From positions 3,861 through 67,860 of the forward strand of contig CAZEFW010000013.1 of NCBI GenBank assembly GCA_964511535.1: a stretch of DNA of 64,000 bases. Reading direction: 5' to 3'. The notes beneath the pieces are model-generated. The model saw only the letters and a program-made list of their open reading frames with translations. It was not told the origin of the DNA and ran no database searches. Position 1 is the stretch's first letter. Every line of letters starts with the position of its first letter. The position numbers and the translations under genes were made by a program. Positions 4,085 to 40,018 of this stretch are shown in pieces. Origin of the DNA: an uncultured Myxococcales bacterium. GTDB lineage: Bacteria > Myxococcota_A > Polyangia > GCA-2747355 > CAZCFB01.

Positions 4085-4801
4085 ATGACCGAGAAGATCC
4101 TCATCATCATCCCCACATACAACGAGTGCGATAACATCCGTCCCCTCACGGCCGCGATCCAACAGCGCCTGCCGGAGGCCCACCTGCTGTTCGTGGACGA
4201 CGCCTCCCCGGACGGCACAGGCGTGCTGGCGGACTCCCTCGCCGAAACGGACGACCGGATCCAGGTTCTACACCGCGCCGGCAAGCTCGGACTCGGCACG
4301 GCCTACATCGACGGGTTCCGCTTCGCCCTTGACCGGGACTACGAGTACATCTTCGAGATGGACGCCGACTTCTCGCACAACCCCGACCACCTGCCCGCGT
4401 TCCTGGCCGCAGCCCAGGGCGGCGCCGACCTGGTGCTCGGCTCCCGCTACGTACCGGGGGGCGGCACCGTGAACTGGGGGGTCAGCCGCAAGATCATCAG
4501 CCGCGGCGGGAGCCTTTATGCCCGGACCATCCTGGGGGTCAAGGTCAAGGACCTCACCGGCGGCTTCAAGTGCTTCCGGCGACGGGTGCTGGAGGCCATC
4601 GACCTGGACTCGATCCGCTCCGAGGGCTACTCGTTCCAGGTGGAGATGACCTACCGGACCCTGCGCCACGGCTTCTCGGTGCAGGAGGTGCCCATCACCT
4701 TCGTGGACCGAAGGGTGGGGCAGTCGAAGATGTCGCGGGACATCTTCCTCGAGGCGATCTGGATGGTCTGGAAGCTGCGCCTGGGCGGCGACGGCAGCTA
4801 G
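4085..4801 (+). CDS. Polyprenol monophosphomannose synthase (GT2, Ppm1/DPM1-like)
   Basis: Motifs IIPTYNE, VDDASPDGT, KLGLGTAY, EMDADFSH, GSRY, DLTGGFK, GYSFQVE, FVDRRVGQSKMS. Confidence 0.92.
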   Translation: MTEKILIIIPTYNECDNIRPLTAAIQQRLPEAHLLFVDDASPDGTGVLADSLAETDDRIQVLHRAGKLGLGTAYIDGFRFALDRDYEYIFEMDADFSHNPDHLPAFLAAAQGGADLVLGSRYVPGGGTVNWGVSRKIISRGGSLYARTILGVKVKDLTGGFKCFRRRVLEAIDLDSIRSEGYSFQVEMTYRTLRHGFSVQEVPITFVDRRVGQSKMSRDIFLEAIWMVWKLRLGGDGS

Positions 4802-4960
4802 GCACCGATCAGGTAAAGGGACCGAGCCAGGCGAAGCAACTGGAATCACAGGCGCGAAGCGAGGAGGGAGCTTGCTTGTGGCAAGCGACCGACGAGCGAC
4901 AAAGCCTGTGGTTTCAGGGGCGAGTCTGGGGACGGGAGTTAACCTGTTCGGTGCTTCTAG
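4798..4960 (+). mobile_element. MITE-like structured repeat, copy 1
   Basis: Terminal inverted repeats GCACCGATCAGGT (4802-4814) / ACCTGTTCGGTGC (4942-4954), with CTAG on both sides. Near-identical to 22830-22992; core shared with 39862-40018. Confidence 0.85.
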
Positions 4961-5919
4961 CTGCCGCTCCCCTCCAACAGGGCCTCCAGCCACGCGCCGA
5001 AGGCCTCGGTGCGCACCACGGCGTGGGCCACAGGGGTGGCGCGCTCCAGCGCCAGGTCGCGCACGGCGTCCTCCACGCCGAGCTCCGCCAGCAGGGCCCG
5101 CATGCTCTTGCCCGCCTCGCGCTCCAGCCCGGCCCGCAGCTCACCCCGCAGGGCCTCGCGCACCTCTTCTCTCGCCAGGTTGTGCGCCAGGAGCCGCGGC
5201 ACCAGGGCCCAGATCTCGTCGGTGGGCATCTTGGCCAGCTCCTCGTAGAAGAAGCTCACCTCCCTGCGCAGAGCCTTGTCGAACAGGTCGGCGCGCATGG
5301 CGCCCTGGAGCTTCAGCCCTCCGTCGGAGGAGGCGAGCTCGACGATCTTGCCGGTGAGGCGCGCCATGGACTGGTCCAGGAACTCGCGGACGCGCTGCTC
5401 CATCCCCTTCTCCAGCCCCTTGCCGGCGGCCCCGAGCAGCCCCTTGCCAGCGCGCTTGCCGAAGGCGCCCACCAGGCCGGCGGCGCCCGAGAGCCCGGGC
5501 AGCTTGCTCCGCTGCAGGAACCCGAGCAGGGCCTCCTGCACCACCGCGCCGAGCATGGAGCGCACGGCTTTCTGATCCACCAGGTCCTGGATGATCTCGG
5601 GGTTGATGGGCAGCGGCCGCTGCAGCAGCGCGGCCATCTCCGGCACCATCTCCCCGGGCACCGCCGCGGACACCGGCTCCGCGGTCTGGCGGGCCCTGGT
5701 CCGCTCGCGGGCGGCCGCCGGCTTCAGGTAACGGTCGATCACCTCGGAGGTGACCCCCTCGCTCAGGGCGGCGTCCACGGCCCGGACGATCCACTCCACC
5801 TCCACGAGGTGGTCCACCGGCAGGTCGAGCACCGCGTCCACCGCCAGGGTCACCAGGTCGTCCAGGGCCCCGCCCTCGGCCTTCAGCGCCTCGAGCAGGT
5901 CTTTTTCGGAAAGGGCCAT
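4957..5919 (-). CDS. Hypothetical alpha-helical protein (320 aa)
   Basis: Start overlaps the response-regulator stop (TGATG); typical codon bias; no recognisable catalytic motif. Confidence 0.75.
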   Translation of the reverse strand: MALSEKDLLEALKAEGGALDDLVTLAVDAVLDLPVDHLVEVEWIVRAVDAALSEGVTSEVIDRYLKPAAARERTRARQTAEPVSAAVPGEMVPEMAALLQRPLPINPEIIQDLVDQKAVRSMLGAVVQEALLGFLQRSKLPGLSGAAGLVGAFGKRAGKGLLGAAGKGLEKGMEQRVREFLDQSMARLTGKIVELASSDGGLKLQGAMRADLFDKALRREVSFFYEELAKMPTDEIWALVPRLLAHNLAREEVREALRGELRAGLEREAGKSMRALLAELGVEDAVRDLALERATPVAHAVVRTEAFGAWLEALLEGSGS

Positions 5920-7295
5920 CAGGCGTCCTCCTCGTACTGCCGCAGCTTCTTCCAGAGCGTGGTGCGGTTGATGCCGAGCACCTCGGCGGCGCGGGTCTTC
6001 TGGCCCCCCACCTCCTGCAGCATATGCTCGATGTGGTGTCGCTCCACCTCCTCCAGGCTCTGGCCCTCGAAGGGATATGGCGGCGGCGCCAGGCGCGGGG
6101 CCTCATCGGCAGGGGCAGGGTCCACCGGCCCGTCGGCCACGTCGGCCACGTCGATTACCGGGTCCGAGCTCAGGATCACCGCGCGCTCCATGACGTTCTC
6201 CAGCTCCCGCACGTTGCCAGGCCAGGGCTGGGCCCGCAGGTGCTCCAGCGCGCCGTCGGTGATCCCCTCGATGCGCTTGCGCGCCTTGAGGGCCGAGGCC
6301 CGCAGGAACCGGTCGACCAGCAGCGGGATGTCCTCGCGCCGCTCCCGCAGCGGCGGCACCCGCAGCCCGACCACGTTGAGGCGGTAGAACAGGTCCTCAC
6401 GGAAGCGCCCCTCTTCCACCGCCTCGGTCAGCTCGCGGTTGGTGGCGGCCACCACCCGCACGTCGACCCGGCGGGTCTCCAGCCCGCCCACCGGCTTGAC
6501 CTCGCCCTCTTGCAGCATGCGCAGCAGCTTGGGCTGCAGGTCCAGGGCCAGCTCGCCCACCTCGTCCAGGAAGAGGGTCCCCTTGTCCGCCGTGGAGACC
6601 AGGCCCATCTTGCTGGCGTGGGCGCCAGTGAAGGCGCCGCGCACATGGCCGAACAGCTCGCTCTCCAGCAGGGTGCCCACCAGGGAGCCGCAGTTCACGG
6701 TGACGAAGGAGCGCGCCGCGCGCAGGCTGTGGACATGGATCGCCCGGGCGAACAGCTCCTTGCCGGTGCCGCTCTCGCCCTGGACCAGCACGGTGGTGTC
6801 GGAGCGGGCCACCTTGCGGGCCGTCTCGAACAGCTTGCGCATGGCAGGCGAGACGCCCACGATGCTGTCGAGGCCATGCTTGGAGCGCAGGTCCCGGCGC
6901 AGCCGCTCGTTCTCCTCGGCCAGCCGCCGCTCCTTGAGCGCGCGGGCCACCACCAGGCGGATCTCGTCGGGGGTGAACGGCTTGGTGATGTAGTCCCGGG
7001 CGCCCTCCTTCATGCCGCGCACCGCCGTGTCGATGCTCGGGTAGCCGGTGACCAGGATCACCACCTGATCCGGCCGGTCGGCCAGCATCCGACGGCACAG
7101 CTCGATCCCGTCCATGGCGGGCATCTTGATGTCGGCGAGCACCACGTCGTACTCGCCCTTGTTGAACATGCCGAGCGCCACGGGCGCGGAGTCTGCGGTG
7201 TCCACCTGGTAGCCAGCGCGACGCAGGATGTCCGCGCTGAGGGTGCGGACGCCGCGCTCGTCATCCACTACGAGGATCGAAGCTGAAGCGGTCAT
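5919..7295 (-). CDS. Sigma54-dependent response regulator (NtrC/AtoC family: REC-AAA+-Fis HTH)
   Basis: ILVVDDE, DIKMP, KPF; GESGTGKE; ESELFGHVRGAFTGA; FLDEVGE; FREDLFYRL; WPGNVREL; AAEVLGINRTTLWKKL. Confidence 0.95.
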   Translation of the reverse strand: MTASASILVVDDERGVRTLSADILRRAGYQVDTADSAPVALGMFNKGEYDVVLADIKMPAMDGIELCRRMLADRPDQVVILVTGYPSIDTAVRGMKEGARDYITKPFTPDEIRLVVARALKERRLAEENERLRRDLRSKHGLDSIVGVSPAMRKLFETARKVARSDTTVLVQGESGTGKELFARAIHVHSLRAARSFVTVNCGSLVGTLLESELFGHVRGAFTGAHASKMGLVSTADKGTLFLDEVGELALDLQPKLLRMLQEGEVKPVGGLETRRVDVRVVAATNRELTEAVEEGRFREDLFYRLNVVGLRVPPLRERREDIPLLVDRFLRASALKARKRIEGITDGALEHLRAQPWPGNVRELENVMERAVILSSDPVIDVADVADGPVDPAPADEAPRLAPPPYPFEGQSLEEVERHHIEHMLQEVGGQKTRAAEVLGINRTTLWKKLRQYEEDA

Positions 7296-7346
7296 GCAGG
7301 CATTTGAAGCCAAACCGGCCCGACGGTCAACGGGCAGTGGTGGAGA

Positions 7347-8402
7347 TCACCCCGGGCCAGCCTCCCGGATGCGCTGCAGCGCGGCCTGCACGGCGTCCTC
7401 GTCGAGCACCCCCTCCGCCGTCGCCGCGGCATCCATGGCCTCGAACACCCGGCTGTTGCCCCAGCTGCGCTGGTAGCCCGCATCGCCCAGCAGCAGGACC
7501 CGCTCACCGTCGAGGGCCGGGATGTCCGCGGGCACGCCCTCGTTCCAGACCCAGTGGTCGCTGCCGGCGGGGCCCTGGTCCATGGCGCCCGCCCCCAGGG
7601 CCGTCCAGGCGTAGAGGTCCCAGGCGCCGGACACGGTGTCCGGCAGCTCCTGCGGCCCGGCCCCCCGCGCCACCGCCACCCAGTCCTGCGGCGGCGGATC
7701 CCCTGGCAGGATCCCTCCCCCGAGCAGGGTGTCCATGAGCATCACGTGCAGCTGGAAGTTGTCGGCGATGCCCGAGATGCGCAGGCGGGCGCCGCGGCCC
7801 TGCCGCGGGTGCAGCACCAGCAGCGGCTCATCGTCCAGCACCTGCAGCAGGGTCCAGACGAAGGCGCCGCCCCCGTCGTGGCGGCGCAACACGTCGGCGG
7901 CGCCTGCCAGCTGCGCGCGGACCAGCTCCCGGCCCTCGGCGGACGGGCTGAACACGGCCACCGTGGGCAGGTAGAGCGTGTGCAGGGCGGTCCAGGCCGC
8001 GTCCCCCTCGGGCTCTTCGGCGGCGGCGCGAGCCCGCGCCTCGGGGTCGCTCACCGGGTCATGCTCCTCGTCGGTGCGCTGCGCCTCCAGGCGCTCCAGG
8101 AAGCGGTCCATGGGGCCCAGGGCCCGGGCCAGGATGGCCGCCAGCGGCAGGAACGCGGGCCGCGGGTCGGCGCCGGACTCCACCAGCGCGCCAGCCACCA
8201 GGGCGCCGAAAGCGGCGCGCCCATGATCCTGCAGGGGCGTGATGCTCCGACAGAGCAGCGAGAGGTAGAGATCCGGGGCGCCGGCGCTCTGCTCCAGCAG
8301 CACCGACGCCGCGTCCCGCAGCGCCTCGTTGTCCGCGTCGGGGCTCTGCAGGGCGGCCATGAACCCTGCCACGAGGCGACGGTACGGCGTGGTCGCGTCC
8401 AT
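7347..8402 (-). CDS. Hypothetical protein between the kinase and regulator genes
   Basis: Abuts the histidine kinase stop; helical N-half; C-half has conserved-looking motifs GIADNFQLH, WVWNEGVPADIP, YQRSW. Confidence 0.75.
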   Translation of the reverse strand: MDATTPYRRLVAGFMAALQSPDADNEALRDAASVLLEQSAGAPDLYLSLLCRSITPLQDHGRAAFGALVAGALVESGADPRPAFLPLAAILARALGPMDRFLERLEAQRTDEEHDPVSDPEARARAAAEEPEGDAAWTALHTLYLPTVAVFSPSAEGRELVRAQLAGAADVLRRHDGGGAFVWTLLQVLDDEPLLVLHPRQGRGARLRISGIADNFQLHVMLMDTLLGGGILPGDPPPQDWVAVARGAGPQELPDTVSGAWDLYAWTALGAGAMDQGPAGSDHWVWNEGVPADIPALDGERVLLLGDAGYQRSWGNSRVFEAMDAAATAEGVLDEDAVQAALQRIREAGPG

Positions 8403-10591
<2,189 letters not shown>

Positions 10592-10595
<4 letters not shown>

Positions 10596-11908
10596 CGGTC
10601 CCCTCCGGCGTCAGGGGTCTGCAGCGGGGGGCCGAGCAGCCGGCGCCAGGCGCGGGCCACGCCGTCGAGGGCCTCGGCGGGGGTCGCGTCCCCGCGGAGC
10701 ACGGCCTGCACCGCCGGCGTGAAGTCGTCGAAGATGCGCGCCATGGCAGGGTGCCGTGGCCGGCCCCGTGTCTGCTTGAGCGCCGCCGCGAAGTCACCCA
10801 CCAGGCGATTGGATCGCACCGCGGTCTGGTGGTACGCAGCGCGCAGAGCGGGCAGCAGGTGGCTCTCGCCGGCGAACTGCACCTGCGCCTCCATCCCGGC
10901 CAGGGCGGCGGCGAGCTTCCACGCCTCGGCCGGCTTGCGGGCGCACTTGCTCACCATGTACCCGTGGCCGGAGAAGGGCGCGATGGGCTTGCCCGAGGGG
11001 CCGAGCGGGAAGGGCGCGATGCCGAGCTTCTGCATGTCGCGGAAGGCGGGCTGCTCCAGCAGCGAGGCGATGGCCCACGGGCCGTTGGCGATCATGGCCA
11101 CGTCCCCCCGGCCGAACAGGCGGGTCATCTCGCCGTAATCATCCGACGGCTTGCTGTTGGGTGGGCCGGCGCCCTCTGCCCGGATCAGACCGCCGTAGCG
11201 CGCCAGGGCACGCACCGCCGGCGGGCGGTTGATGAAGATCTGCCGCGTGGTTGGGTCCAGCAGCGCGCCGCCTTCGGCCCAGAGGAAGGGGAGGAACCAG
11301 TACGCCTCCCCTCGCACGAAGAAGCCCCACCGGCGACCGCCGCCGGGCTGGCCAGCGGTGTCGCCTGCCGGGGCGGCGCCGGTCAGCTCTCTGGCCCGGG
11401 CCACCAGGCGGCCAAGGGTGCGCGGCGGGGAGGGCACGAGGTCGGTGTTGTAGAGCAGGGCCAGGCAGTCGAGGCTGGCCGGCAGCATCCATCGCTTGCC
11501 CTGGTAGCGGGCCGCCCTGGCCGCCCGGGGCAGGTAGCTCGCCTCGCGGATCAGCCCGTCCGGGACCGGGTGCACCAGGCCCCGGCTGGCCAGCTCCGCC
11601 ACCCAGGGCAGCTCGGCCCGGAACAGGTCGGGGGCGCTGTCCCCGCAGCGCGTGGCCGCCCGACGCAGCTCGTTCTGGGCGCGGGCGAAGGGGATCACGG
11701 TGGCGTGGACAGCCAGCTCCGGGCGCTGTGAGCGGATCCTCGCCAGCAGCCGGTTCAGGGTGGCGGTCTCGTCGGGGTTGAAGGTGTGCCAAAGGTTGAG
11801 CACCACCGAAGGAGGCGGGGCAGCGCTCGGCCGGGTCGCGCGCTTGCAGCCGGCCAGGACCGGGCCACAGCACAGGAGCAGCAACAGGATGCGGTTGACG
11901 GGGCGCAT
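10592..11908 (-). CDS. Extracellular solute-binding lipoprotein (MalE/carbohydrate-binding family 1-like)
   Basis: Lipobox VLAGC; LWHTF, APDLF, LLYNTDL, FLWAEGG, FGRGDVAMIANGPW. Its stop overlaps the kinase start (GTGA). Confidence 0.88.
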
Positions 11909-11981: not shown

Positions 11982-11994
11982 AAACTGGAGCCCC

Positions 11995-19476: not shown

Positions 19477-22400
19477 ATGATGCGCACATCAAGCAGGTTC
19501 TCCTCAACAAAGCTCTTGGCCATCCTGGCTTCGGCAGCAATCCTCACTCTTCTGCCCGTCACATCGCGAGCCGAGGTGGATCCCATGGGGGTCATCACCG
19601 AGCGCCTGCAGCGGGCCGAGGTCTCCATCGTGCTGGACACGTCGGGCTCCATGGCCTGGTATCCAAACCCGGCCACCAGAGTCGGCTCGGACTGCGGCGG
19701 GAACCGCAAGGGCACCGTGGACCTGTGCGGCGATGGCATGTGCAGCGGGTCCGAGGGCAGCAGCGGAAACCTGTGCGCCCAGGACTGCAACCTCTCCAGC
19801 GCCACGTCCGGCCCGGCCGGATCGCCGAAGCAGTGCAATCCAAACAACGTCAAGAATTCCCGCATGTTCATGATCAAGCGGGTGCTGCGAAATCTGCTCC
19901 CTGACCTGCGCAGGTCCGTGTCCTTCGGCATGGTCACCTTCTACCAGACCGGCTATCACCGGTACTACCTGGCAGATACGGGCACGACCAAGCAGGTGTC
20001 GGTGTTCTTCAGCCGGATGGAGCTGGAGGCGCTGGGCGCCTGGAACAAGAACAAGGAGCGGCCCCGCAACTACTTCAACTGGAACGGCACGCAGTACAGC
20101 CGCCTGAACAAGTCCGGCCTCAGCGTCAAGCGCGACAGCCTGTACGCCCGCGTGGACAACACGGGTATCGAAAACCGGTTCAAGTTCAACAAAGCAAAGC
20201 TGCTCCATACCACCGGGTCGCTGAACTGGAGCTACCGCGGCACCTACTACACCTTCGACCAGCGCCCCATTCAGGCCAACGTCTGGTTCAGCTCTCCGAC
20301 CTACAGGGGGCCGCAGTTCGTGGACGCATCCGGCAACGCCTGGGTCCACCACCGCTACGACCACAACTACAGCTCTCAGGGCATCTCGGCAGGGTCTTCC
20401 GGGATGGTTTCGGTGCCCATGGCCGCAAGCGAGGACCAGGCTGTCATCGACAACCGGCTCTTCAGCATCATGAGCAAGCTGAACACCGCTCGTAACGGCG
20501 GCATCTGGTCCTACGGCGGTACCCCGGCCGGGCCGGCCATCCAGACAGCAGAGTCGCTCTTCCGGGCCAGGCAGCAAGGCACCGGCATTTATGCCGCTGC
20601 CGGAGCGGATCCGCAGGCTTCCTGCCGGCCGCGTTTCGTCCTGCTGCTCACCGATGGCCAGTCGAACCAGGGGGTGAAGCCGTGGGTCGCCGCCCAGAAC
20701 CTGCGACTCAGCTCCACCTTCTCGGGCAACCCGATCCGCACCCTGGTGGTGGGCCTCCCGGGGCTCCCGTCTTCGGCGGTCTCCGAGCTGGACCGGGTGG
20801 CCGACCTTGGCGATGACGGCATCTCCAACAACAGCCAGAGCGCGTATGTCGCCAGCGACGAGGCGGCCCTGGCCAAGGTGCTCAAGCAGGTGCTGTTCGA
20901 GATCGTCCAGGGCGATTACACCACCACCGAGCCCGCTGTCACCACCCAGCAGGCCAGCCTCGCCACCCAGGAGGTGGCGGTCATCCCCTCCACCGAGTAC
21001 CCGGGATGGCGCGGCCAGGTCCGCGCGCTCGACCTGACCACCACCCCGCCGACAGAGCTTTGGAACGCCGGGGACATGCTGCAGAACGTCTCCTACAAGG
21101 AGCGGATCCTCTTCTCCGGTTACCCCACCCTGAACAACGGCTTGCCGGTCAAGATCATGGCCCCGGACGGGACCGTGAACATCAACGGCGGCTGCTCCGG
21201 CTGCGGAGGCGTGGGCCTGCGGCAGATCTGGAAGAAGGTCGGCACGCCGCCCACAAACAACGAGATCCGCCGCATGGTGGAGTGGCTGGCCGGCAAGGGG
21301 CGGACATGGAAGCTGCCGCCCCTGATGCACTCCACGCCTGCCGTGGTGGGCATGCCGCCCAAGTACGACCTCAAGAGCCACGGCGACTTCCGCGGGGCCT
21401 ACGCCAGCCGCGAGCGGCTGATCTATGTCGCCTCCAATGAGGGGCTGCTGCATGCCTTCCGCAACAAGGACGGCAGCGAGGCGTTCGCTTACCTGGTGCC
21501 CGACGCGCTGCCCATGTTGTACGACCTGTGGCGCCGCGGCGGGCAAGACGCGGATCCCTCCGGCTTCCGCTGGGTGCTGGCGAGCTCGCCGCGCGTGGAG
21601 GATGTCCCGTCAAGCGCGGCCTTCGGGTGGTCTACCCACCTTGTGCTCACCATGGGCGCGGCGGGAGAGCAGTTCGTGGCGCTGGACATCACCGACCCGT
21701 CGGAGTGCCACGCCACCTCTTGCACGCTCAACCCCGCCCCCTTCACGGTGGCGGCGCACTCCCGCGAGCTGCAGACGGCGTCGGTGCTGGGCGAGACCTG
21801 GTCCGTGCCGGCGCTGTATTACGACTACGTCGGTGGATCCAACGCGCCGGACGCGAAGATGTCCATGGGCAGCGGCTATGGCTCGGGCTCGGAAGGGAAC
21901 TTCTACAACCACTTCGACTCGCTGTATGCGGCGCCTGGATCCACCGAGCACAGCTCCACCGGGGCGCAGGTGGACTTCGCGGTGCTGGCCGACACGACGG
22001 CCGCCATCAACCTGGAGGACCGGCGGCAGGTCATGGCCACCTACCAGGCGGACCTGCACGGCCGCATCGCGCGCTACACAAAGGGGGACAACCAGGCGGG
22101 CTCTGTGCTGATTGACGCCGGCGCCACGCACCCGATCTACTACAGCCCGGCCACGTTCCACATGGGCAACGGCAACGTGCTGCTCGCCGCGGCCTCCCAG
22201 GCGCAGGACGAGGCGTCGCCTCCGTCGAGCGCGCGCACCGCGCTGATCATCCGCAGCGAGAAGGACGGCCAGGTGGACCTGTTCAATGACAACGTGACCT
22301 GTGACATCACCGACATCTGCTCGCAGAAGCCTGGCTGCCCGGTGACCATCCCTTCGGGCTGCGTCGCGCCGGGCGCCACGGCCAAGCCGGTGACGCGGCC

Positions 22401-22737
22401 GCTGATCATCCAGAACGAGGTCACCGCCAACAACTTCAAGTACGAGGTGTTCTACCTGCTGTACGAGGAGGCCGCCACGGCTTGCGCCGAGGGGAGCTCC
22501 TGGCTGGTACGCATCGCCACCGACGGCTCGAGCCAGCAGCTCGTCAGCGCCACGAAGTACCAGGGGATCCGGGCCACGGGCGTCACCCCGGTGGGCGGCG
22601 GCGTTGACATCGCCATCACCCAGATCGGCGTCAAGGGCAAGAAGGCGACCGCCTTTACCGTGCTCCAGAACCTCTCCACCGGCGTCCTTTCAGGCATCAA
22701 ACCCTACGTCGAAGTCTGGAAGGAAGTCGCCTACTAG
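19477..22737 (+). CDS. PilY1/PilC-like type IV pilus adhesin (vWA plus beta-propeller)
   Basis: Signal peptide; MIDAS DTSGS and LLTDG, GGTP; PilY1 motifs W.GQVRA, WNAG..L, HSTPAVVG, IYVASNEGLLHAF...DGSEAFAY.P, ALDITDP, LGETWSVP, ADLHG. Confidence 0.85.
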   Translation: MMRTSSRFSSTKLLAILASAAILTLLPVTSRAEVDPMGVITERLQRAEVSIVLDTSGSMAWYPNPATRVGSDCGGNRKGTVDLCGDGMCSGSEGSSGNLCAQDCNLSSATSGPAGSPKQCNPNNVKNSRMFMIKRVLRNLLPDLRRSVSFGMVTFYQTGYHRYYLADTGTTKQVSVFFSRMELEALGAWNKNKERPRNYFNWNGTQYSRLNKSGLSVKRDSLYARVDNTGIENRFKFNKAKLLHTTGSLNWSYRGTYYTFDQRPIQANVWFSSPTYRGPQFVDASGNAWVHHRYDHNYSSQGISAGSSGMVSVPMAASEDQAVIDNRLFSIMSKLNTARNGGIWSYGGTPAGPAIQTAESLFRARQQGTGIYAAAGADPQASCRPRFVLLLTDGQSNQGVKPWVAAQNLRLSSTFSGNPIRTLVVGLPGLPSSAVSELDRVADLGDDGISNNSQSAYVASDEAALAKVLKQVLFEIVQGDYTTTEPAVTTQQASLATQEVAVIPSTEYPGWRGQVRALDLTTTPPTELWNAGDMLQNVSYKERILFSGYPTLNNGLPVKIMAPDGTVNINGGCSGCGGVGLRQIWKKVGTPPTNNEIRRMVEWLAGKGRTWKLPPLMHSTPAVVGMPPKYDLKSHGDFRGAYASRERLIYVASNEGLLHAFRNKDGSEAFAYLVPDALPMLYDLWRRGGQDADPSGFRWVLASSPRVEDVPSSAAFGWSTHLVLTMGAAGEQFVALDITDPSECHATSCTLNPAPFTVAAHSRELQTASVLGETWSVPALYYDYVGGSNAPDAKMSMGSGYGSGSEGNFYNHFDSLYAAPGSTEHSSTGAQVDFAVLADTTAAINLEDRRQVMATYQADLHGRIARYTKGDNQAGSVLIDAGATHPIYYSPATFHMGNGNVLLAAASQAQDEASPPSSARTALIIRSEKDGQVDLFNDNVTCDITDICSQKPGCPVTIPSGCVAPGATAKPVTRPLIIQNEVTANNFKYEVFYLLYEEAATACAEGSSWLVRIATDGSSQQLVSATKYQGIRATGVTPVGGGVDIAITQIGVKGKKATAFTVLQNLSTGVLSGIKPYVEVWKEVAY

Positions 22738-22766: not shown

Positions 22767-22804
22767 CAAAATCGAGGACGCTTTTAAAAAGCGTCCTCGT
22801 TTTG
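22767..22804. terminator. Intrinsic terminator-like hairpin after the PilY1 gene
   Basis: CAAAATCGAGGACGCTTTT / AAAAAGCGTCCTCGTTTTG, a near-perfect inverted repeat ending in a T run. Confidence 0.75.
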
Positions 22805-22829
22805 CGGTGCAGCATGGGGGAGGGGGAGT

Positions 22830-22992
22830 TAGAGCACCGATCAGGAAAAGGGACCGAGCCAGGCGAAGCAACTGGAATCACAGGCACGGAGGGAGGAGGG
22901 AGCTTGCTGGAGGCAAGTGACCGACGAGCGACAAAGCCTGTGGTTTCAGGAGCTGCGCCTGGCGACGGGAGTTAACCTGTTCGGTGCTCTAG
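22830..22992 (+). mobile_element. MITE-like structured repeat, copy 2
   Basis: Terminal inverted repeats TAGAGCACCGATCAGG ... CCTGTTCGGTGCTCTA; body near-identical to 4802-4954. Confidence 0.85.
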
Positions 22993-23154
22993 TGGGGTGG
23001 AACCGAAGTTCGAGCTACATGCTCGCGCCGCAATCGTAATTCCTGGCAAGGCGCGAAGAGGGCGCGTACTGGAAGTACGCAACCGATGAGCAACGTAGCC
23101 AGGGGTCTCGAGGGCAAGCGATATGTGGGTCGAATCTAGGAGACACCCCACTAG
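22989..23154 (+). mobile_element. Second MITE-like element with different ends and a related core, abutting copy 2
   Basis: CTAG-TGGGGTG (22993-22999) ... CACCCCA (23144-23150)-CTAG; core CCTGGC-AAGGCGCGAAGAGGGC-GCGTAC-TGGAA-GTACGC-AACCGATGAGCAACGTA-GCCAGG. Confidence 0.75.
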
Positions 23155-25571
23155 TAGCAATTCGAGGTGCTGGAGCAGGCCTTGGTGTCTGCGGGAGTCG
23201 GTGCGCTGGAGCCGGTGAGGCCCTTCTTGCCGTCTCGCTCGGCAGTTGGGGCGCCGGTGGCCGAGGCGCCGCCGCTGCCGCCATTGCCCGCCGTGGCGCT
23301 GGCCTTGTCGAAGGTGCAGCTCTGGGTGATGTTGCTCTTGTAGCTCAGGATCCCGTAGCTTGCGCCGCCGCTTCCGCCGCCGCCCCCGCCGCCGTGACCA
23401 CCGTGGCCGCCCTTGGCGCCCGCGCCACCGCCGGAACGCCCGCTCTTGCCCGATCCGCCGCTCCCCCCGCTGCCGCCGCTCTGGCCCTGGCCGCCCTCAC
23501 CGCCGCTGCCGCCGGTGCCGCCGTCGCCGAGCTTGATCGCGCAGTCCCCGCCGAAGGTGATCCCCGACGCGATGGCCACCAGCCCGAAGCTGCCGCCCCC
23601 GGCCTTGCCGCCGCCGCCGCCCGTGAGCGCGGCGCAGCCACCCGCGCCACCGCCGCCGCCGCCGGCCCCTGCAAAGTCGAAGTCCTTGTCACACCCGCCG
23701 CCCCCGCCACCGCCGCCGCCGCCGCCGCCGTTCTTGCCCGCGCCGCCCTGGCCGCCAGCGCCGCCATACCAGAAGCCGCTGACCAGCGCGCCGCCGGAGC
23801 CTGCCGCGCCGGGCGCCCCGTTTTGCACTCGCCCCGCCTTGCCACCGCTGCCCTTGCCGCAGGTCGAGGCGCCGTATCCGCCGCCGCCTCTGTAACCGTA
23901 GCTGTTGTAGACATAGTAGGAGGCGTTGCTGCCTGACGAGCCGTTGCTGGCAGTGCAGTCCCCGCCGATGAGGCACTGTTTGACCCCGAAGTAGGTCTTG
24001 CATTTGGTGTCGGCCTTGCCCCCGTTGCCGCCGCCGCCCCCGGCCGGAGCGGGAGAGCCGATGCAGCTGTTGAAGCCGCCCTTGCCGCCGTAGCCATGCA
24101 CGCCGCTGTCGCAGGTGCTGTACAGCTGCTTGCCGTCACCCCCCTTGGCGCCGTTCATCACCGACGTGGCGTACACCTGAGGCGCCGGCAGCCCCTTGCC
24201 GCCCGCCTTGCCCGCCGCCCCTCTGCCCGCCTGGAGGGTGACCCGGTCGAACTTCAGGTTGAACGAGGTGTCCGCGTGCACCACGTAAGAGCTTCGGGTG
24301 CCCGCCGTGGTCTCACCCGAGGCGTCTGCCCCGACCAGCATCAGATCCATCATGGCCGCGCCCTTGCTGATGCTGTGAGCCAGCACCGTGAGGTACTGCC
24401 CGGTGCTGCTGTGCAGGCTGCCCTTGATGGTGACCATGTGCGCCGACTTGGAGCGCACGTCCCGCTTCCAGCTGCTGTCGAACCCGCCCACCACGCTGGC
24501 GCCATCCTTGAGCGTCACCACCTCGCTGTAGGTGCCCGCCTGCAGGTAGATATGCTTCTTGCCCTGGTTGGCAGCCGCGATGAACGCGTACCCGATGGTC
24601 TTGCACGGGATCTTGTGGGTGCCGCAGTTGGAATTGTCCAGGCCCGACGGCGCCACGAAGACGCCGCTCTTGAGCTCGCCGTCGATGCCGTCGCAGTTCT
24701 TGTCCTCGAACTTGCCGTCCGGCTCGTCGGTCTTGGACGGCGCCTCGCACGCGCTCCAGCCCAGGCTCTTGCCTCCGCTCCACCCCTTGGCCTCGCACTT
24801 GTAAGCGCCGGCGCAGGTGGTGCCCAGCGCCGTCTTGATGCTGCACGCCTTGGTCTTGCCGATCTTGGTCTTGTCGCAGTCGCAGGCGCCGCTGTCGGGC
24901 ACGCACTGGTTGTGGCTGGAGCCGCCGATGGTCACCGAGGTGCAGCTGTAACCGGTGGGGCACCCCTTGACCGTGCTGCAGTCCCGTCCGCAGTAGGCGC
25001 TGCCGTCCGGGTAGGGGATGCACTTGTCCGCCAGGCTGATGGAGCACTCCTTGTCGGTCTTGCACGGGGTGCACATGATGTTGTTCTCCGGCACGCACAC
25101 CTCGGTCACCTTGCCGGTCTCGACCGAGCCGAGCACGCCGAAGCAGTTGTAACCCTTGGGACAAACGGTGCCCTTGCACAGCTTGGAGCAGATTCCGCCG
25201 GTGCCGGCGAACAGGCAGATGTTGGACTGGCACTGCTTCTTGTCGGTGCACTTGGAGCCGAAGGGCAGCTTGGCCATGTCCGGCTTGAACAGCTGGTCCG
25301 GCGCGCCGCCCTCCATGACCAGATCGCCCTGGGAGCCGTCGTTGCCTGGCCCCAGGTCCACCGCGGGCCCCTTGTCTGGCCCCCCCGCCTCGGCGTACCC
25401 CGTGCACACCCCCCCGATGCAGTTCCACCCCACGGGGCAGGGGTGGTCTCCATCGCAGTTGCAGGTGGTTGTGTTGGGGTCGCAGTTTTCGATGAACACC
25501 GGCGTGGAGCTGGCGCAGGAAGCGAGGGCCAGCGTGGCGCAGGCGAGCAGGATCAGAGCAATTCTAGTCAT
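23151..25571 (-). CDS. Cys-rich, Gly-rich (PGRS-like) surface lipoprotein with a DUF1565/beta-helix-like region
   Basis: Lipobox LASC; many Cys repeats; DKNCDGIDG motif; VFVAPSG..CGT..PCKTI; long GGxGG tracts. Confidence 0.8.
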   Translation of the reverse strand: MTRIALILLACATLALASCASSTPVFIENCDPNTTTCNCDGDHPCPVGWNCIGGVCTGYAEAGGPDKGPAVDLGPGNDGSQGDLVMEGGAPDQLFKPDMAKLPFGSKCTDKKQCQSNICLFAGTGGICSKLCKGTVCPKGYNCFGVLGSVETGKVTEVCVPENNIMCTPCKTDKECSISLADKCIPYPDGSAYCGRDCSTVKGCPTGYSCTSVTIGGSSHNQCVPDSGACDCDKTKIGKTKACSIKTALGTTCAGAYKCEAKGWSGGKSLGWSACEAPSKTDEPDGKFEDKNCDGIDGELKSGVFVAPSGLDNSNCGTHKIPCKTIGYAFIAAANQGKKHIYLQAGTYSEVVTLKDGASVVGGFDSSWKRDVRSKSAHMVTIKGSLHSSTGQYLTVLAHSISKGAAMMDLMLVGADASGETTAGTRSSYVVHADTSFNLKFDRVTLQAGRGAAGKAGGKGLPAPQVYATSVMNGAKGGDGKQLYSTCDSGVHGYGGKGGFNSCIGSPAPAGGGGGNGGKADTKCKTYFGVKQCLIGGDCTASNGSSGSNASYYVYNSYGYRGGGGYGASTCGKGSGGKAGRVQNGAPGAAGSGGALVSGFWYGGAGGQGGAGKNGGGGGGGGGGGGCDKDFDFAGAGGGGGGAGGCAALTGGGGGKAGGGSFGLVAIASGITFGGDCAIKLGDGGTGGSGGEGGQGQSGGSGGSGGSGKSGRSGGGAGAKGGHGGHGGGGGGGSGGASYGILSYKSNITQSCTFDKASATAGNGGSGGASATGAPTAERDGKKGLTGSSAPTPADTKACSSTSNCY

Positions 25572-32868: not shown

Positions 32869-32884
32869 TGCAAACCACGAGCCA
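32869..32884 (-). promoter_or_regulatory. Sigma54 (-24/-12) promoter of the PPC lipoprotein gene
   Basis: Minus strand TGGCTCGTGGTTTGCA: GG-N10-GC, one mismatch to TGGCACG-N4-TTGCW, about 60 bp upstream of the ATG. Confidence 0.7.
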
Positions 32885-33008
32885 CTATTGTCGTCAAGTG
32901 TTTTCGCGCACTTATCCCTCTGGGGGGCGGATCCCCCACTGACCGGCTACAACAGTAGCCAGCCAGCCGGCTAGCCAGCGACGCAGCGCGTCAAAGGATT
33001 ACGGGGGG

Positions 33009-35030: not shown

Positions 35031-35080
35031 GTTTGTTCTCTCCTTGCGGTTCGGAAGCACGAAGTATGTCACAGAAAAGT

Positions 35081-35136
35081 GAGTCGACAGTCGTCAGTCG
35101 ACAGTCGACAGTTGGGTATCGATGGTTGACAGTTGA
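35081..35136. repeat. Degenerate heptamer tandem repeat (AGTCGAC-type)
   Basis: AGTCGAC AGTCGTC AGTCGAC AGTCGAC AGTTGGG ... GGTTGAC AGTTGA, in a divergent intergenic region. Confidence 0.75.
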
Positions 35137-35166
35137 ATGCTACGAAAGCGTTGCCCGTAAGCTTCT

Positions 35167-37260: not shown

Positions 37261-37289
37261 GAGCCTCACGGTGTGGGGAGGATGCACCC

Positions 37290-38201
37290 ATGAACAGAGC
37301 GCTGCTAATTCTGTTTCTGTGCGCGGCAGGGGCCGGATGCGCCGATGACGGGGTAATGGTCACGGACGGCGCCGCCGCGGCAGACGCCATGGTGGAGACC
37401 GACGCCGCGGTCCCCGGGACATGGGTCACGGTCAAGGCCGGCGCCTTCTCCATGGGGTCGCCCGCCGCCGAACCCTGCCGCGACGCCGACGAGGCCGCGC
37501 ACCAGGTCACCCTCACCCGGGACTTGCTGGTCTCCGCCACGGAGACGACCCAGGGCCAGTACCGGGCGCTGATGGGCAAGAGCCCGGCCTTTCACGGCGC
37601 GTGCGGTGATGCTTGCCCGGTGGAGTGGGTCACGTGGCACGAGGCCGCGGCCTACTGCAACGCCCTGTCGGCGCTCAAGGGCCTCTCCGCCTGCTACAGC
37701 TGCAGCGGCGCCGCCGACAAGACGCGCTGCGCCCTCTTCGGATCAGGGCAGCCCGCAGCCTGCCGCGGGTTCCGCCTGCCCACCGAGGCGGAGTGGGAGT
37801 TCGTGGCCAGGGCCGGCACCGCCACGGCCTTTTACAGCGGCGGCATCTCGTCATGCATGACCACCGACGCGGGCGCCGGCGCCATCGCCTGGTACAAGGT
37901 CAACGCCTCCGGTCTGACCCGCAAGGTCAAGGGGCTGAAGGCCAACGCCCTGGGCCTGTACGACATGAGCGGCAACGTCTACGAGTGGACCGGCGACTGG
38001 TACGGCCCATACCCCGCCGGCGCGGCGACAGATCCGGCGGGGCCCTCCACCGGCACCGAGCGGGTGTTCCGCGGCGGCGCGTACTACTTCAACGCCGAGC
38101 ACGCCCGGTCGGCTAACCGGGAGCGGTTCGCGCCCGACAAGCGGCTGACCTTCGTCGGGTTCCGCTGCGTGCGCAGCCTCAGCCCCGGAGGTGCGTCATG
38201 A
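37290..38201 (+). CDS. FGE-sulfatase (SUMF1/CLec-fold) domain lipoprotein
   Basis: FSMGSP, CPVEWVTW.EA..YCN, RLPTEAEWE, NALGLYDMSGNV.EW, RGG, GFRC. Confidence 0.9.
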   Translation: MNRALLILFLCAAGAGCADDGVMVTDGAAAADAMVETDAAVPGTWVTVKAGAFSMGSPAAEPCRDADEAAHQVTLTRDLLVSATETTQGQYRALMGKSPAFHGACGDACPVEWVTWHEAAAYCNALSALKGLSACYSCSGAADKTRCALFGSGQPAACRGFRLPTEAEWEFVARAGTATAFYSGGISSCMTTDAGAGAIAWYKVNASGLTRKVKGLKANALGLYDMSGNVYEWTGDWYGPYPAGAATDPAGPSTGTERVFRGGAYYFNAEHARSANRERFAPDKRLTFVGFRCVRSLSPGGAS

Positions 38202-39055
38202 ACCAGCGGGTCATGTGGCATGTCCCCGCGCTGGCCCTGCTGGCCTGCGCCTGCGCCGACCCCGGGGCAGCGCTTCCGGCCCCCGCAGTGGGCCGCCCTC
38301 TGGCCACCGACGTGAAGGTCGCCGCGGTGCAGTACGGCACGGGCAGCCACGGGCTGGTGGACACCGACTGCGCCAGCGCCGTCCTGCCCGACGCCTGCGC
38401 CGTGGCGAAGCTGGTGGAGCAGGCCGCCAAGGCGGGCGCGAAGCTGGTGGTGACCCCGGAGTACGGCCTGGGCCAGAAGTACCTGGAGCCGGTGCCGGTG
38501 GTGGGCAAGAACCCCGGCACCGACGCCAGCTGGTCCGGTGGCTCGCTGATCAAGAGCTTCAGCCAGCGCGCGGCGCTGCTGAAGATCCACCTGGTGGTCA
38601 ACCTGCAGACCAACGGCGGGGGCGGCGCGCGGTACAACTCCCAGGTGGCCTTCAGTCCCTCCGGCGCCGTTGCCGCGATTCACCACAAGTTCGAACTCTT
38701 CGCCAGCGAGCGCAAGAGCCTCACGCCGGGCAAGGAGCTGAACGTCTTCTCCAGCCCGGTGGGCAAGGTGGGCCTGCTCATCTGCGCGGACCTGTACGGA
38801 GACCTGCGCAAGCATCGTCAGCTGACGGGTCCCCTCGGGGCGCGCGTGGTGGCCGTCTCCTCCCTCTGGACCGCGGACGGCGGCTGGCGCTGGCAGCAGA
38901 ACTTCGCCCGCAACTGGGGCGTGTACGTGGTTGGCTCCAACACCACCGGCGGGGCAGGGCGCGGCGGCGGCATCTTCGATCCCACGGGCCGCGTGCTGGC
39001 CAAGCATACCGACGGCAAGCCGGCGGTCACCCTGGCCAGCATTCCGGCGCGCTGA
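38198..39055 (+). CDS. Carbon-nitrogen hydrolase (nitrilase superfamily), secreted/lipoprotein
   Basis: VAAVQ, VVTPEYG (catalytic E), HKFELF (K), GLLICAD (C); N-terminal signal with LACAC. Confidence 0.85.
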   Translation: MNQRVMWHVPALALLACACADPGAALPAPAVGRPLATDVKVAAVQYGTGSHGLVDTDCASAVLPDACAVAKLVEQAAKAGAKLVVTPEYGLGQKYLEPVPVVGKNPGTDASWSGGSLIKSFSQRAALLKIHLVVNLQTNGGGGARYNSQVAFSPSGAVAAIHHKFELFASERKSLTPGKELNVFSSPVGKVGLLICADLYGDLRKHRQLTGPLGARVVAVSSLWTADGGWRWQQNFARNWGVYVVGSNTTGGAGRGGGIFDPTGRVLAKHTDGKPAVTLASIPAR

Positions 39056-39101
39056 GCATGTTAAGCTGACTCCTTCAACTCGACGTCGACAGGAGGAGCC
39101 C

Positions 39102-39863
39102 GTGGTCGGAAGGGTGGCAGCAAGCTGCGCGCGGTACGGTCTCGTCGCATCGCTGCTGGTCTGCCCCATGGGAGGGTGCGAGATGCGCCTGGGCGACAGC
39201 CCCTTCCTGTGCAACAGCGGCGGGAGCCCCCTGTGCCCGCCGGGTTACGAGTGCCGGCAAGGCCGCTGCGTCAAAAAGGGGGTCTGCCCCTCCGCGAGTC
39301 CGCTGTGCGGCCGCACCGAGGCCGGCGGCCCCCTGGTGGACGCCGGTCCGCCGGAGGCTGGCAAGCCGCCCCCGCCCGACAGCAAGGCGTGGCCCCCGGA
39401 CAGCGTGGCCTGGCCGCCCGACAGCAAGCCGTGGCCCCCGGACCAGAAGACCTGGCCGCAGGACATGCCGCCCCCGCCGCCGGACATGCCGCCCCCGCCG
39501 CCGGACATGCCACCCCCGCCGCCGGACATGCCGCAGCCGAAGCCTGATCTGCCGCCCACCGCGGGTGGGTACGGCGCCACCTGCGGCGGCATCTACCCCG
39601 GGTGCAAGCCCGGCTTCACCTGTATGGCGATCCCGGGCCACACGCCGTCGTTCTGCACCGTAAAATGCCCCAGCATCGGCCAGACCTGCAGCGGCACCCC
39701 GGGCAACACCCACGCCAAGTGCGTGCTCAAGGATAGCGGCGGCCAGCTCTGGTGCGCGTTCATCTGCGCATACAACATGCAGAAGTGGCCATGCCCCAAC
39801 AACATGACCTGCGCAAAGCTGCCCAACCCGCCCACCAGCCTGCAGTACCCGTGCATGCCCTGA
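39102..39863 (+). CDS. Cys-rich lipoprotein with a Pro-rich heptapeptide stalk
   Basis: AGGAGGAG RBS before GTG at 39102; two Cys-rich domains separated by PPDxxxx repeats. Confidence 0.75.
   Translation: MVGRVAASCARYGLVASLLVCPMGGCEMRLGDSPFLCNSGGSPLCPPGYECRQGRCVKKGVCPSASPLCGRTEAGGPLVDAGPPEAGKPPPPDSKAWPPDSVAWPPDSKPWPPDQKTWPQDMPPPPPDMPPPPPDMPPPPPDMPQPKPDLPPTAGGYGATCGGIYPGCKPGFTCMAIPGHTPSFCTVKCPSIGQTCSGTPGNTHAKCVLKDSGGQLWCAFICAYNMQKWPCPNNMTCAKLPNPPTSLQYPCMP
39372..39540 (+). repeat. 21-bp coding tandem repeat (PPDSKAW/PPDMPPP, 8 units)
   Basis: GGACATGCCGCCCCCGCCGCC repeated from 39461; the four preceding units have the same 21-bp period. Confidence 0.85.
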
Positions 39864-40018
39864 GGGCTGACCAACAATCCTCCCGTCGCCAGGCTTGCTC
39901 CTGAAACCACTGGCTTTGTTGCTCGTCGGTCACTTGCCACCAGCAAGCTCCCTCCTCGCGCCTCGCCAGTGATTCCAGTTGCTTCGCCTGACTCGGTCCG
40001 GATCATTGGTCACCCCTC
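39862..40018 (-). mobile_element. MITE-like structured repeat, copy 3 (same core, different terminal repeats)
   Basis: The reverse complement of 39881-40000 matches the core of copies 1 and 2; the ends are GAGGGCTGACCAACAATCC / GGATCATTGGTCACCCCTC. Confidence 0.85.

Follow-up and report, generated by a model that had tools for sequence, protein, structure and literature searches.

ERIC elements (also termed IRU or RU-1) of the Enterobacteriaceae and Vibrionaceae are, in the sections of the literature that deal with them, small palindromes with terminal inverted repeats and TA termini that lie mostly at gene ends, and in all these respects they resemble the family described here. The relevant parts of three papers report their gene-end location and their transcription as long hairpins (PMC2229807, PMC3184786, PMC10969869). 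The Correia elements (NEMIS) of Neisseria and the RUP elements of Streptococcus pneumoniae also give RNA hairpins, which are processed by RNases according to the passages on them in PMC2229807 and PMC10969869, and the same passages state that the RNA hairpins of ERIC and Correia elements alter mRNA stability via RNase E or RNase III. Elements of the IS630 family insert at TA and duplicate it, as the pertinent section of PMC2170065 describes. Known MITE families have conserved ends and an interior that is filler; in the family reported here this is reversed.

The window, by which we mean the whole 64-kb stretch of DNA analysed, contains four copies of a palindromic, TA-flanked, non-coding element of ~160 bp. 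A covariance model of the core matches exactly four sites within it (71.0-86.8 bits, E <= 2.6e-16), a set of matches that is not attributable to chance and that recovers the same four elements, with the same positions and strands, as an earlier note on this DNA. The copies and their central modules, the latter as found with covariance model R1, are as follows.

4801..4957, + strand: copy 1, terminal-repeat class B, end G-GCACCGATCAGG...
4837..4922, + strand: central module of copy 1, 71.7 bits
22832..22989, + strand: copy 2, class B, with TA at 22830-22831 on the left
22869..22954, + strand: central module of copy 2, 71.0 bits
22992..23151, + strand: copy 3, divergent subfamily, ends GTGGGGTGGAACCGA.../...GGAGACACCCCAC
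23031..23116, + strand: central module of copy 3, 82.8 bits
39862..40018, - strand: copy 4, ends GAGGGGTGACCAAT.../...TTGGTCAGCCCTC
39896..39981, - strand: central module of copy 4, 86.8 bits

Copy 1 is flanked by TA at 4799-4800 and at 4958-4959, and each TA belongs to a TAG stop codon; the ORFs that end there converge on the element, one at 4046-4801 (+, glycosyltransferase family 2) and the other at 4957-5919 (-). Copy 3 adjoins copy 2 directly, the TA at 22990-22991 being common to the right flank of copy 2 and to copy 3, and the TA to the right of copy 3 (23152-23153) lies within the stop codon of ORF 23151-25571 (-). The flanks of copy 4 are decayed (CA and AG), and it is located between the convergent ORFs 40030-41346 (-) and 38931-39863 (+). 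Placement mostly at gene 3' ends, as the earlier note had it, is also seen in the genome at large, where convergent genes enclose 16 of 39 copies and the TA flank often contains the neighbouring stop codons. The presumed insertion site, TA, is often CTAG or T(A/T)A, and in the GC-rich source genome it is mostly within stop codons.

The module of copy 1 passes from an outer stem through a helix studded with G.A pairs to an apical hairpin. The outer stem CACAGGC/GCCTGTG is present in copies 1 and 2, and the inner hairpin is GCTTGC/GCAAG(C/T) in three copies and GCGTAC/GTACGC in copy 3 (22989-23154 in the earlier delimitation), all as previously described. The compensatory outer stem CACTGGC/GCCAGTG also exists, but it belongs to copy 4 on the minus strand and not to copy 3, to which it had been assigned; the compensatory change in copy 3 gives CCTGGC/GCCAGG. 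In the fold, full pairing of the stem CTGGAATCAC/GTGGTTTCAG needs G-U pairs, which form on the given strand only, as had been claimed. The ends had been taken for three unrelated inverted repeats; TGGGGTG of copy 3 is clearly different, but a single template, (T/C)AGAG-4 nt-GA(T/C)C-A, accounts for those of copies 1, 2 and 4 and is common to most copies in the genome. With RNA parameters the whole of copy 4 is predicted to fold at -97.9 kcal/mol (z -12.1), against -63.1 kcal/mol for the opposite strand.

Further genomic copies, on whose existence the earlier note had made its reading depend, are numerous: an nhmmer search of the source genome, a marine MAG of 9.45 Mb that probably belongs to Myxococcota, gave 53 matches, 39 of them near-full, with arms that fall into classes. 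At least 118 stretches, drawn from many phyla, contain a letter-identical 42-nt centre, which almost always sits in a hairpin element of ~169 bp with differing arms. By their record titles these come from Myxococcota, Acidobacteriota, Bacteroidota, Verrucomicrobiota and Actinomycetota, as well as Gemmatimonadota, Eremiobacterota, Thermodesulfobacteriota and Alpha- and Gammaproteobacteria, and cultured carriers include Sphingomonas sp. CFBP 13720, Sphingopyxis sp. H053, Aureimonas sp. ME7 and Nannocystis radixulma. The closed genome G043 alone has 54 exact centres and, judged by end pairs, about 170 copies. Exact matches to the 42-nt pattern were not found in viral contigs, nor was there a BLAST match to the 86-nt module in plasmids.

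The four elements are very probably members of a large family of non-autonomous transposable elements (MITEs) of ~160 bp, being small, without coding capacity, dispersed in many copies and bounded by terminal inverted repeats. The family has no conserved reading frame, and stem and loop vary. A flanking inverted repeat accompanies 103 of 121 motif occurrences, and 11 of the remaining 18 are cut by a contig end. Of 79 elements of other genomes, 40 have TA no more than 4 nt from each end, as do 9 of 31 in the source genome, whereas control positions 14 nt further out have it in 1 of 79 and 0 of 31 respectively; many flanks are decayed, and since CTAG is palindromic, a TA duplication there is indistinguishable from an extended inverted repeat. 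Some classes are flanked by TAA or TTA instead of TA. About 20 'odd' loci, in which the right end is apparently absent, have the size of a MITE and possess an additional hairpin. Among the sequencing runs listed, the locus occurs in four DNA runs of one marine-metagenome study and in no RNA run; contigs from these four break inside the elements (at 4889, 22876 and 23125), and among the matches listed for these runs there was no bridging or empty-site contig across an element.

The interior is the most conserved part of the element, its centre being highly conserved in sequence on both strands, whereas the ends vary. Its apparent internal loop is, on comparative evidence, a helix built of alternating tandem G.A pairs and covarying Watson-Crick pairs. 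Alignments A4 and A5, having been fitted to the model, are biased in favour of its structure. Pairing is seen in 91.4% of cells among 135 sequences compared with 71.2% in shuffles (0 of 500 shuffles reaching the observed value) and 26-41% when the partners are slid, and among 81 more diverse sequences in 93.0% compared with 67.5%. Both-sided changes occur in the latter set at 20 of the 21 pairs, including those between the G.A tandems, one of which is GC 66 times, CG 7 times, AU 3 times and UA once. The G.A and A.G positions themselves are nearly invariant, and positions 35 and 58 change jointly from A.G to C.A or back in 12 non-overlapping pairs of closely related sequences. The commonest version of the module has the 5' strand GGCGCGAGGAGGG(A/C)G and the 3' strand (Y)(G/A)ACCGACGAGCAAC. 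The apical hairpin that caps the helix is free in sequence and its changes are always compensatory, the GCTTGC letters being one local form of a stem whose sequence differs freely from member to member. In L257, a member of the family, CCC/GGG replaces the inner G.A tandem.

The family is new to Rfam 15 and to the MITE reviews and survey examined. Rfam 15 gave no matches in the window at the gathering threshold and none in five loci at E <= 1, and nine further loci gave only tRNAs and sub-threshold chance matches; the comparison with Rfam urged by the earlier note gave no matching family. Literature searches by keyword returned nothing on the family, although MITE catalogues in supplements (e.g. 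PMC11602168) may list it, and those by sequence string returned unrelated papers only.

The autonomous transposase with matching ends that the earlier note had envisaged was found for one end class in another organism. There, an IS630-type element of ~1165 bp (L202) with a 378-aa DDE_3 ORF has the end CTAGTGTCCCGTCCGAGTAATT, which is identical at 22 of 23 bases to the end CTAGTGTCCCGTCCGAGAAATT of a family member (L108). No cognate transposase was found for the end classes of the window, nor for the main class of G043, where DDE_Tnp_1 and DDE_3 are represented by only one gene each; the ends of the DDE_3 element differ from those of the family, and the DDE_Tnp_1 locus has no matching end. When genome lists were compared by hand, DDE_3 presence was not linked to the element (12 of 32 genomes with it versus 43 of 119 without). 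PF13359 was not found in the five genomes searched, and the module was present inside none of nine transposase loci. Several other leads were rejected: short end motifs in the source genome proved to be mostly chance matches, plus three solo ends with no adjoining transposase; a complete IS of 2054 bp makes up contig C329, with ends unlike those of the elements; and an IS5/IS427-like IS of G042 has TA flanks but different ends. The family is presumably mobilized in trans by IS630-type DDE transposases, and the T(A/T)A-flanked classes perhaps by IS5-type transposases.

The two strands of the element are far from equivalent. The top strand is predicted to be more stable than the bottom in 39 of 39 source-genome copies (mean difference -20.4 kcal/mol) and in 75 of 88 copies from other genomes (mean difference -11.8 kcal/mol), and purine-purine and G.T mismatches in the arms are far commoner than their complements. 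Tests of pairing, covariation and strand stability uphold the central proposal of the earlier note, namely that miniature elements with differing ends carry a single-strand fold that is conserved, covaries and is specific to one strand. No orientation bias with respect to genes or replication is consistent across the genomes examined. In tandem gene contexts of the source genome 6 copies are sense and 8 antisense, and in that genome the two strands face gene ends about equally often (top 23 of 37, bottom 24 of 38); in G043, for which gene calls are rough, it is the bottom strand that faces gene ends more (27 of 37 versus 16 of 35 for the top). The orientation data do not support a cis role on host mRNA.

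The best explanation, to which as a whole we give an even chance, combines a MITE family, a module that folds on one strand and a likely role as RNA. The elements would insert at TA, moved in trans by DDE transposases, and every copy carries one common central module, which folds into a continuous irregular helix on one strand only. Read-through of a neighbouring gene would let the top strand form a very stable RNA hairpin, the G.A-studded centre of which could offer a conserved host factor a place for docking or for processing; by keeping the module, an element lineage would persist and spread. Such elements may act as ERIC and Correia elements do, altering the stability of host mRNAs. We infer that the module most likely acts as RNA, and that in this state it would bind a host factor and affect mRNA. 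A more far-reaching reading, which we consider unlikely, is that the G.A-studded hairpin represents a new class of structured nucleic acid spanning many phyla and is itself the true unit of selection, a passenger that recruits a universally conserved host factor and has been repeatedly re-armed with the ends of different transposon families, both the TA-duplicating IS630 type and the TAA/TTA-flanked type. The host factor and the mobilizing enzyme might then even be one and the same, and the occurrence of copy-rich genomes that have no cognate transposase would be explained.

The fold could instead act as single-stranded DNA or a cruciform during replication or transposition, recognized by a mobilizing enzyme or by a host protein that binds DNA structures, with transcription being irrelevant. 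The lack of a gene-orientation bias in the source genome favours this, as do a bias in G043 that is opposite to an mRNA role, the existence of copy-rich genomes without a detected cognate DDE transposase, and a fold of copy 4 that is significant with DNA parameters too (-41.8 kcal/mol, z -7.2). Tandem sheared G.A pairs are stable in DNA, and tandem G.A and G.T pairs form in single-stranded DNA as well, so the chemistry of the pairs cannot decide between RNA and DNA. Movement as single-stranded DNA on the lagging-strand template would, however, be expected to leave a replication-strand bias, and G043 shows none, its 54 exact copies being 29 forward and 25 reverse, interspersed along the full length of the chromosome. 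Moreover, Y1 transposase genes (IS200/RAYT-type, PF01797) were found in two of five copy-rich genomes and not in the other three, with no candidates in G043, and the TA flanks and IS630-type ends suggest double-strand cut-and-paste; action as DNA is rather improbable. We regard it as very unlikely that a transposase or a nucleoid protein recognizes the centre as two binding sites in double-stranded DNA, with the fold a by-product of a palindromic origin. The high conservation of both strands would fit such sites, GGACCGAG and CGACGGGAG, which are subterminal motifs, look like the two centre strands in swapped order, and GTCCGAG also occurs inside the IS630-type end. Duplex recognition, however, predicts none of the following: an apical stem that changes freely and always in a compensatory manner, Watson-Crick pairs between the G.A tandems that flip from GC to CG or AU, the joint switching of positions 35 and 58 in 12 independent close pairs, and mismatch types that are strongly strand-asymmetric.

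A kinship with ERIC by common descent, with the elements as a divergent branch of that family and not just alike in design, is possible but doubtful. Both are TA-flanked palindromes (127-170 bp) whose fold is strand-specific; in 11 of 11 E. coli K-12 copies of ERIC the strand GGAGCTTAC...GTAAGTGAC is the more stable, and the closing motif GGA-stem...stem-(T)GAC occurs in both. With model R2, 4 of 11 ERIC copies can be aligned full-length in the same register, lining up AAG, GAG..GA, GAC and GA.CGA.CG..AGCC, and the CCC/GGG of L257 stands where ERIC also has it. Against this, an R1 search of the whole E. coli K-12 genome returned nothing at E <= 10. With filters off, ERIC copies at loci preselected by the hairpin motif scored 8.7-14.5 bits (E 0.1-2), and unrelated IS loci reach equal noise of up to 14.1 bits. 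Tested against shuffles, the similarity of the flanks to ERIC has p values of 0.04-0.19 (5') and 0.002-0.37 (3') for copies that are not independent of one another, and ERIC-like stem letters are limited to one lineage within the family. The resemblance to ERIC in the earlier note thus holds for the architecture and the surroundings of the apical hairpin but does not extend to model scores, which at 9-14 bits are noise, or to the flanks, where similarity is weak; with ERIC copies scoring at this level, kinship is not established.

The identity of a 42-nt centre across phyla, together with clear covariation, also of non-Watson-Crick pairs, while arms and ends change, indicates a function that depends on something common to all bacteria, and the conserved folded centre probably serves a purpose. 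The cultured carriers make three questions directly testable, namely the binding partner, action as RNA or as DNA, and the reason why orphan MITEs, ERIC and Correia among them, last in the absence of a transposase.

Among known systems ERIC is alike in its strand-specific fold and in a similar closing motif around the apical hairpin, but it is shorter (~127 bp versus ~160 bp), it has a CCCC/GGGG helix where the family has G.A tandems, and the review sections concerned place it only in enteric bacteria and vibrios, whereas the family occurs in many phyla. Correia and RUP are, as the sections on them describe, orphan or IS630-linked MITEs, as the family probably is, and show TA duplication, but they have no sequence relation to it and are confined to one genus each; the passages describing them in PMC2229807 and PMC10969869 mention no conserved G.A-rich centre. 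MITEs derived from IS630/Tc1/mariner elements (bacterial and Stowaway-like) use a TA target, as the family probably does, and duplicate it, according to the part of PMC2170065 that covers them, but have only their ends in common with the parent and an arbitrary interior, in contrast to the conserved interior and variable ends seen here. REP/REPIN (RAYT) and IS200/IS605-derived palindromes are likewise repeated hairpins in which single-strand structure matters, but they are hairpins of 20-40 nt without terminal inverted repeats or TA duplication, and an identity of this type was rejected, there being no Y1 gene found in three of the five copy-rich genomes and no replication-strand bias in G043. 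Integron attC sites are imperfect palindromes that are recognized as a folded single strand, their structure being kept while their sequence varies. They are similar to the family in length, but they form arrays between cassettes beside an integrase, whereas the elements described here are dispersed singly at gene ends with TA flanks.

The four ERIC-like elements that an earlier note had picked out from the sequence alone lie where it placed them, at 4798-4960 (+), 22830-22992 (+), 22989-23154 (+) and 39862-40018 (-) (copies 1 to 4 respectively), align with one another over ~160 nt, and are the only ones found in the 64-kb window by a covariance model search (71-87 bits). That observation is confirmed and can be considerably extended. 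The elements are very probably MITEs, and they are unusual in that the interior is conserved instead of the ends, as a G.A-studded helix that is specific to one strand and retained in many phyla. The compensatory stem changes listed in the note are real, but the CACTGGC/GCCAGTG pair belongs to copy 4 and not to copy 3. Both TA flanks of copy 1 fall within the TAG stop codons of its two convergent neighbour genes, a stop codon contains the right TA flank of copy 3, and a single TA is common to copies 2 and 3. The two convergent ORFs flanking copy 1 (4790-4969) have identical terminal letters, ...GGCAGCTAG, each on its own strand, and without the element the site would form a perfect palindrome of 14 nt in which the stop codons overlap; either the element was inserted at a CTAG site that was itself palindromic, or its inverted repeat extends into both genes. 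A 10-bp hairpin at 22773-22806 (GAGGACGCTT...AAGCGTCCTC), followed by GTTTTG and situated between copy 2 and the end of ORF 19477-22737, looks like the ORF's own terminator, missed by a consensus terminator scan because it has only four Ts.

ORFs of the window
7554-11138, no Pfam match at E <= 1e-5 (806-1194 aa range)
19477-22737, no Pfam match at E <= 1e-5 (806-1194 aa range)
23151-25571, no Pfam match at E <= 1e-5 (806-1194 aa range)
45791-48670, no Pfam match at E <= 1e-5 (806-1194 aa range)
52668-60764, ORF of 2698 aa

The host assembly (9.45 Mb, 340 contigs, 68.7% G+C, 86.6% complete) contains further copies, with 53 matches to a 117-nt core found by iterated nhmmer, 39 of which span at least 96 core positions. 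In a protein atlas the best neighbour cluster of this assembly consists mostly of Myxococcota, a tentative pointer to its affiliation. The centre varies least, letters differing from the majority making up 6-14% there and 34-51% at the ends (alignment A2). The ends form classes, and since (T/C)AGAG-4 nt-GA(T/C)C starts most of them, those of copies 1, 2 and 4 go back to a single template in variant forms; of the three unrelated ends described earlier, only that of copy 3 stands apart, as a more distant group.

The strands around the 6-bp hairpin, described earlier as conserved loop strands, are indeed conserved, but they do not form an unpaired loop, several of the positions being paired by RNAalifold. 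Across the 135 sequences of alignment A3 the centre can be read as a single helix, in which Watson-Crick pairs are interleaved with tandem mismatches of the G.A kind.

Pairs of the central helix (A3 columns)
Watson-Crick pairs: G22-C71, G25-C68, C26-G67, G29-C64, G32-C61, G33-C60
Interleaved tandem mismatch pairs: G23.A70/C24.A69, G27.A66/A28.G65, G30.A63/A31.G62, G34.A59/N35.N58

The G.A and A.G positions are conserved in 129-135 of the 135 rows, a near-invariance due in part to the gathering of 104 rows by exact pattern; the same layout is present in the 31 host-genome rows, which were not gathered in this way, and in 29 divergent relatives found by the model. When divergent relatives are aligned, the interleaved Watson-Crick pairs are seen to flip: G29-C64 is GC in 66, CG in 7, AU in 3 and UA in 1, and G32-C61 is GC in 68, AU in 6 and CG in 4. 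At position 35/58, 77 rows have A.G, 54 have C.A and 4 some other combination, and the changes are repeated and coordinated, since in 12 disjoint pairs of sequences that are otherwise close both columns change together from one main state to the other; A.G and C.A may substitute for each other in sheared-type RNA pairs. Pairing across the module as a whole stands at 91.4% of cells, compared with 71.2% in shuffles (none of 500 reaches the observed value), and pairing drops to 26-41% of cells when the partners are slid. An 81-row alignment, itself fitted to the model, gives 93.0% against 67.5%, with two-sided changes in 20 of 21 pairs.

Folded as RNA, the strand carrying GCGAGGAGGG is more stable than its complement in all 39 host-genome copies (mean difference -20.4 kcal/mol) and, among the 88 copies from other genomes, in 75 (12 reverse, 1 tie; mean -11.8 kcal/mol). 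For copy 4 the values are -97.9 kcal/mol (z -12.1 against 200 shuffles) and, on the opposite strand, -63.1 kcal/mol (z -5.3). Mismatches in the arms outside the centre number 269 G.A, 132 A.G, 146 G.G and 242 G.T/T.G, and the complementary kinds 66 C.T/T.C, 48 C.C and 153 A.C/C.A, a skew that runs in the same direction in the host-genome copies. The strand-specific stability and the mismatch skew support the earlier suggestion of selection on a single-stranded fold, and because of them this selection extends over the entire element and not the centre alone.

The elements prefer gene 3' ends, as judged from rough gene calls (stop-to-stop ORFs with high third-position G+C): 16 of the 39 host-genome copies lie between convergent genes, 6 between divergent genes and 14 in tandem contexts (6 sense, 8 antisense), with a gene called on one side only for 3. 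For 46 of the 54 copies of another genome, G043, 27 of 37 genes lying 3' of the top strand are directed towards the element, and 16 of 35 of those lying 5' of it. The role we consider the likeliest, at about even chances, is that the module would act as RNA, co-transcribed with neighbouring genes, although the rough gene calls of these two genomes reveal no consistent preference for transcription of the well-folding strand. That it acts instead as single-strand DNA seems unlikely: no replication-strand bias is seen along the closed G043 chromosome, where 29 copies are forward, 25 are reverse and the strand does not switch along the length, although with DNA parameters the same strand of copy 4 still folds at -41.8 kcal/mol (z -7.2). 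Duplex binding sites are a quite improbable explanation for a module conserved as a fold of one strand.

Among elements with callable boundaries, 40 of 79 foreign and 9 of 31 host-genome ones have a TA no more than 4 nt from each end, as against 1 of 79 and 0 of 31 at control positions 14 nt further out; each end carries CTAG in 13 of 79 and 4 of 31, and other end classes have TAA or TTA flanks. G043 carries an IS630-type element of ~1165 bp whose ends agree at 22 of 23 bases with those of a member of the family in a Myxococcota MAG. IS630/Tc1/mariner elements insert at and duplicate TA (PMC2170065), so at least the CTAGTG class has IS630-type ends. G043 also has ~170 end pairs (the patterns match 197 and 193 times, the control 24 and 28), copies that are ~90% alike, and head-to-tail arrays with 159-161-bp spacing, of three copies (C1:2740413-2740770) and two (C1:3580269-3580469); a similar partial tandem is found at another locus (L007). 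Its transposase genes are one DDE_Tnp_1, at whose locus a matching end is absent, and one DDE_3, whose element has different ends; DUF4096, DDE_Tnp_4 and Y1 genes were searched for there and none was found. In a sample of 151 genomes, of which related ones are not independent, 12 of 32 element-bearing genomes have DDE_3, as do 43 of 119 element-free ones.

No autonomous partner of the window's own end classes was found in the host genome or in G043, and in the former solo element ends adjoin ordinary genes. The only clear IS of the host genome (2054 bp) occupies an entire contig (C329, 1-2054; locus L197), with inverted ends CTAGCAGCGTTCGGG and a 557-aa frame matching DDE_Tnp_1; its ends differ from those of the window elements, and their first eight letters are the same as in the main MITE ends of G043. 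Genome G042 has eight copies (L186-L194), 97-100% alike, of an 839-bp IS5/IS427-like IS with a 262-aa frame, whose ends read GAACCTATCTCAAAAT directly after TA, with TA on both sides, in the style of the MITEs and with a different sequence.

Core DNA is matched in 10 of 41 related genomes, and the model matches 32 of the 151 sampled from the phylum, with a patchy distribution. When species-representative genomes were scanned with the exact centre pattern, GCGAGGAGGG-15 to 21 nt-ACCGACGAGCAAC, at least 118 stretches were found. By record title, the matches listed come from Myxococcota, Acidobacteriota (mainly Vicinamibacteria), Eremiobacterota, Actinomycetota, Gemmatimonadota, Verrucomicrobiota, Bacteroidota, Thermodesulfobacteriota, and Alpha- and Gammaproteobacteria. 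Some lie on closed chromosomes, and some in isolates grown in culture (Sphingomonas, Sphingopyxis, Aureimonas and Nannocystis radixulma). A flanking inverted repeat surrounds 103 of the 121 motif occurrences listed (median span 169 bp), a contig end cuts 11, and 7 have complete flanks without a repeat, one of which (L111) seems to be a chance occurrence within a coding region. The exact pattern is absent from 2.9 million viral contigs, and the 86-nt module has no match in 72,556 plasmids. Two loci from a MAG titled Promethearchaeota (L029, L078) have arms nearly as in Thermodesulfobacteriota MAGs (L095, L122), which points to bacterial contigs binned in error rather than to an archaeal host. 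In a Nannocystaceae MAG (L038, ~3110-3190) the right arm is replaced by a tandem run of a 12-nt unit, AAGACGAGCAAG, expanded from the module 3' strand, and at G143:C114:9335-9560 (L263) the G.A helix and hairpin are wholly and cleanly absent, with both outer stems kept (...GGCGCG joined to GCAACGCAG...).

Rfam 15 has no matching family, and none was found in the literature by keyword or sequence string, with ISfinder, Dfam, subscription journals and supplements outside the scope. In the portions covered of a 2024 MITE review (PMC10969869), the Delihas reviews (PMC2229807, PMC3184786) and a MITE survey of 183,232 genomes (PMC11602168), the hosts of ERIC are Enterobacteriaceae and Vibrionaceae, Myxococcota are unmentioned, and Acidobacteria occur once, as a phage host name. 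The hairpin motif quoted in the earlier note finds 11 ERIC copies in E. coli K-12, and the resemblance it proposed holds in part. ERIC and the elements have a common design and the same letters closing the apical hairpin, all 11 ERIC copies are more stable on the same strand, model R2 aligns 4 of them over their full length in a plausible register, and one relative (L257) has CCC/GGG at the place of ERIC's CCCC/GGGG. Kinship by descent is nevertheless less likely than not: a search of the E. coli K-12 chromosome with model R1 gives no match at E <= 10, ERIC copies scored with filters off reach 8.7-14.5 bits where noise at unrelated transposase loci reaches 14.1, the flank similarity is weak, and the ERIC-like stem letters are a local variant of a stem that varies freely in the family. 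The elements are therefore classed here as ERIC-like in design.
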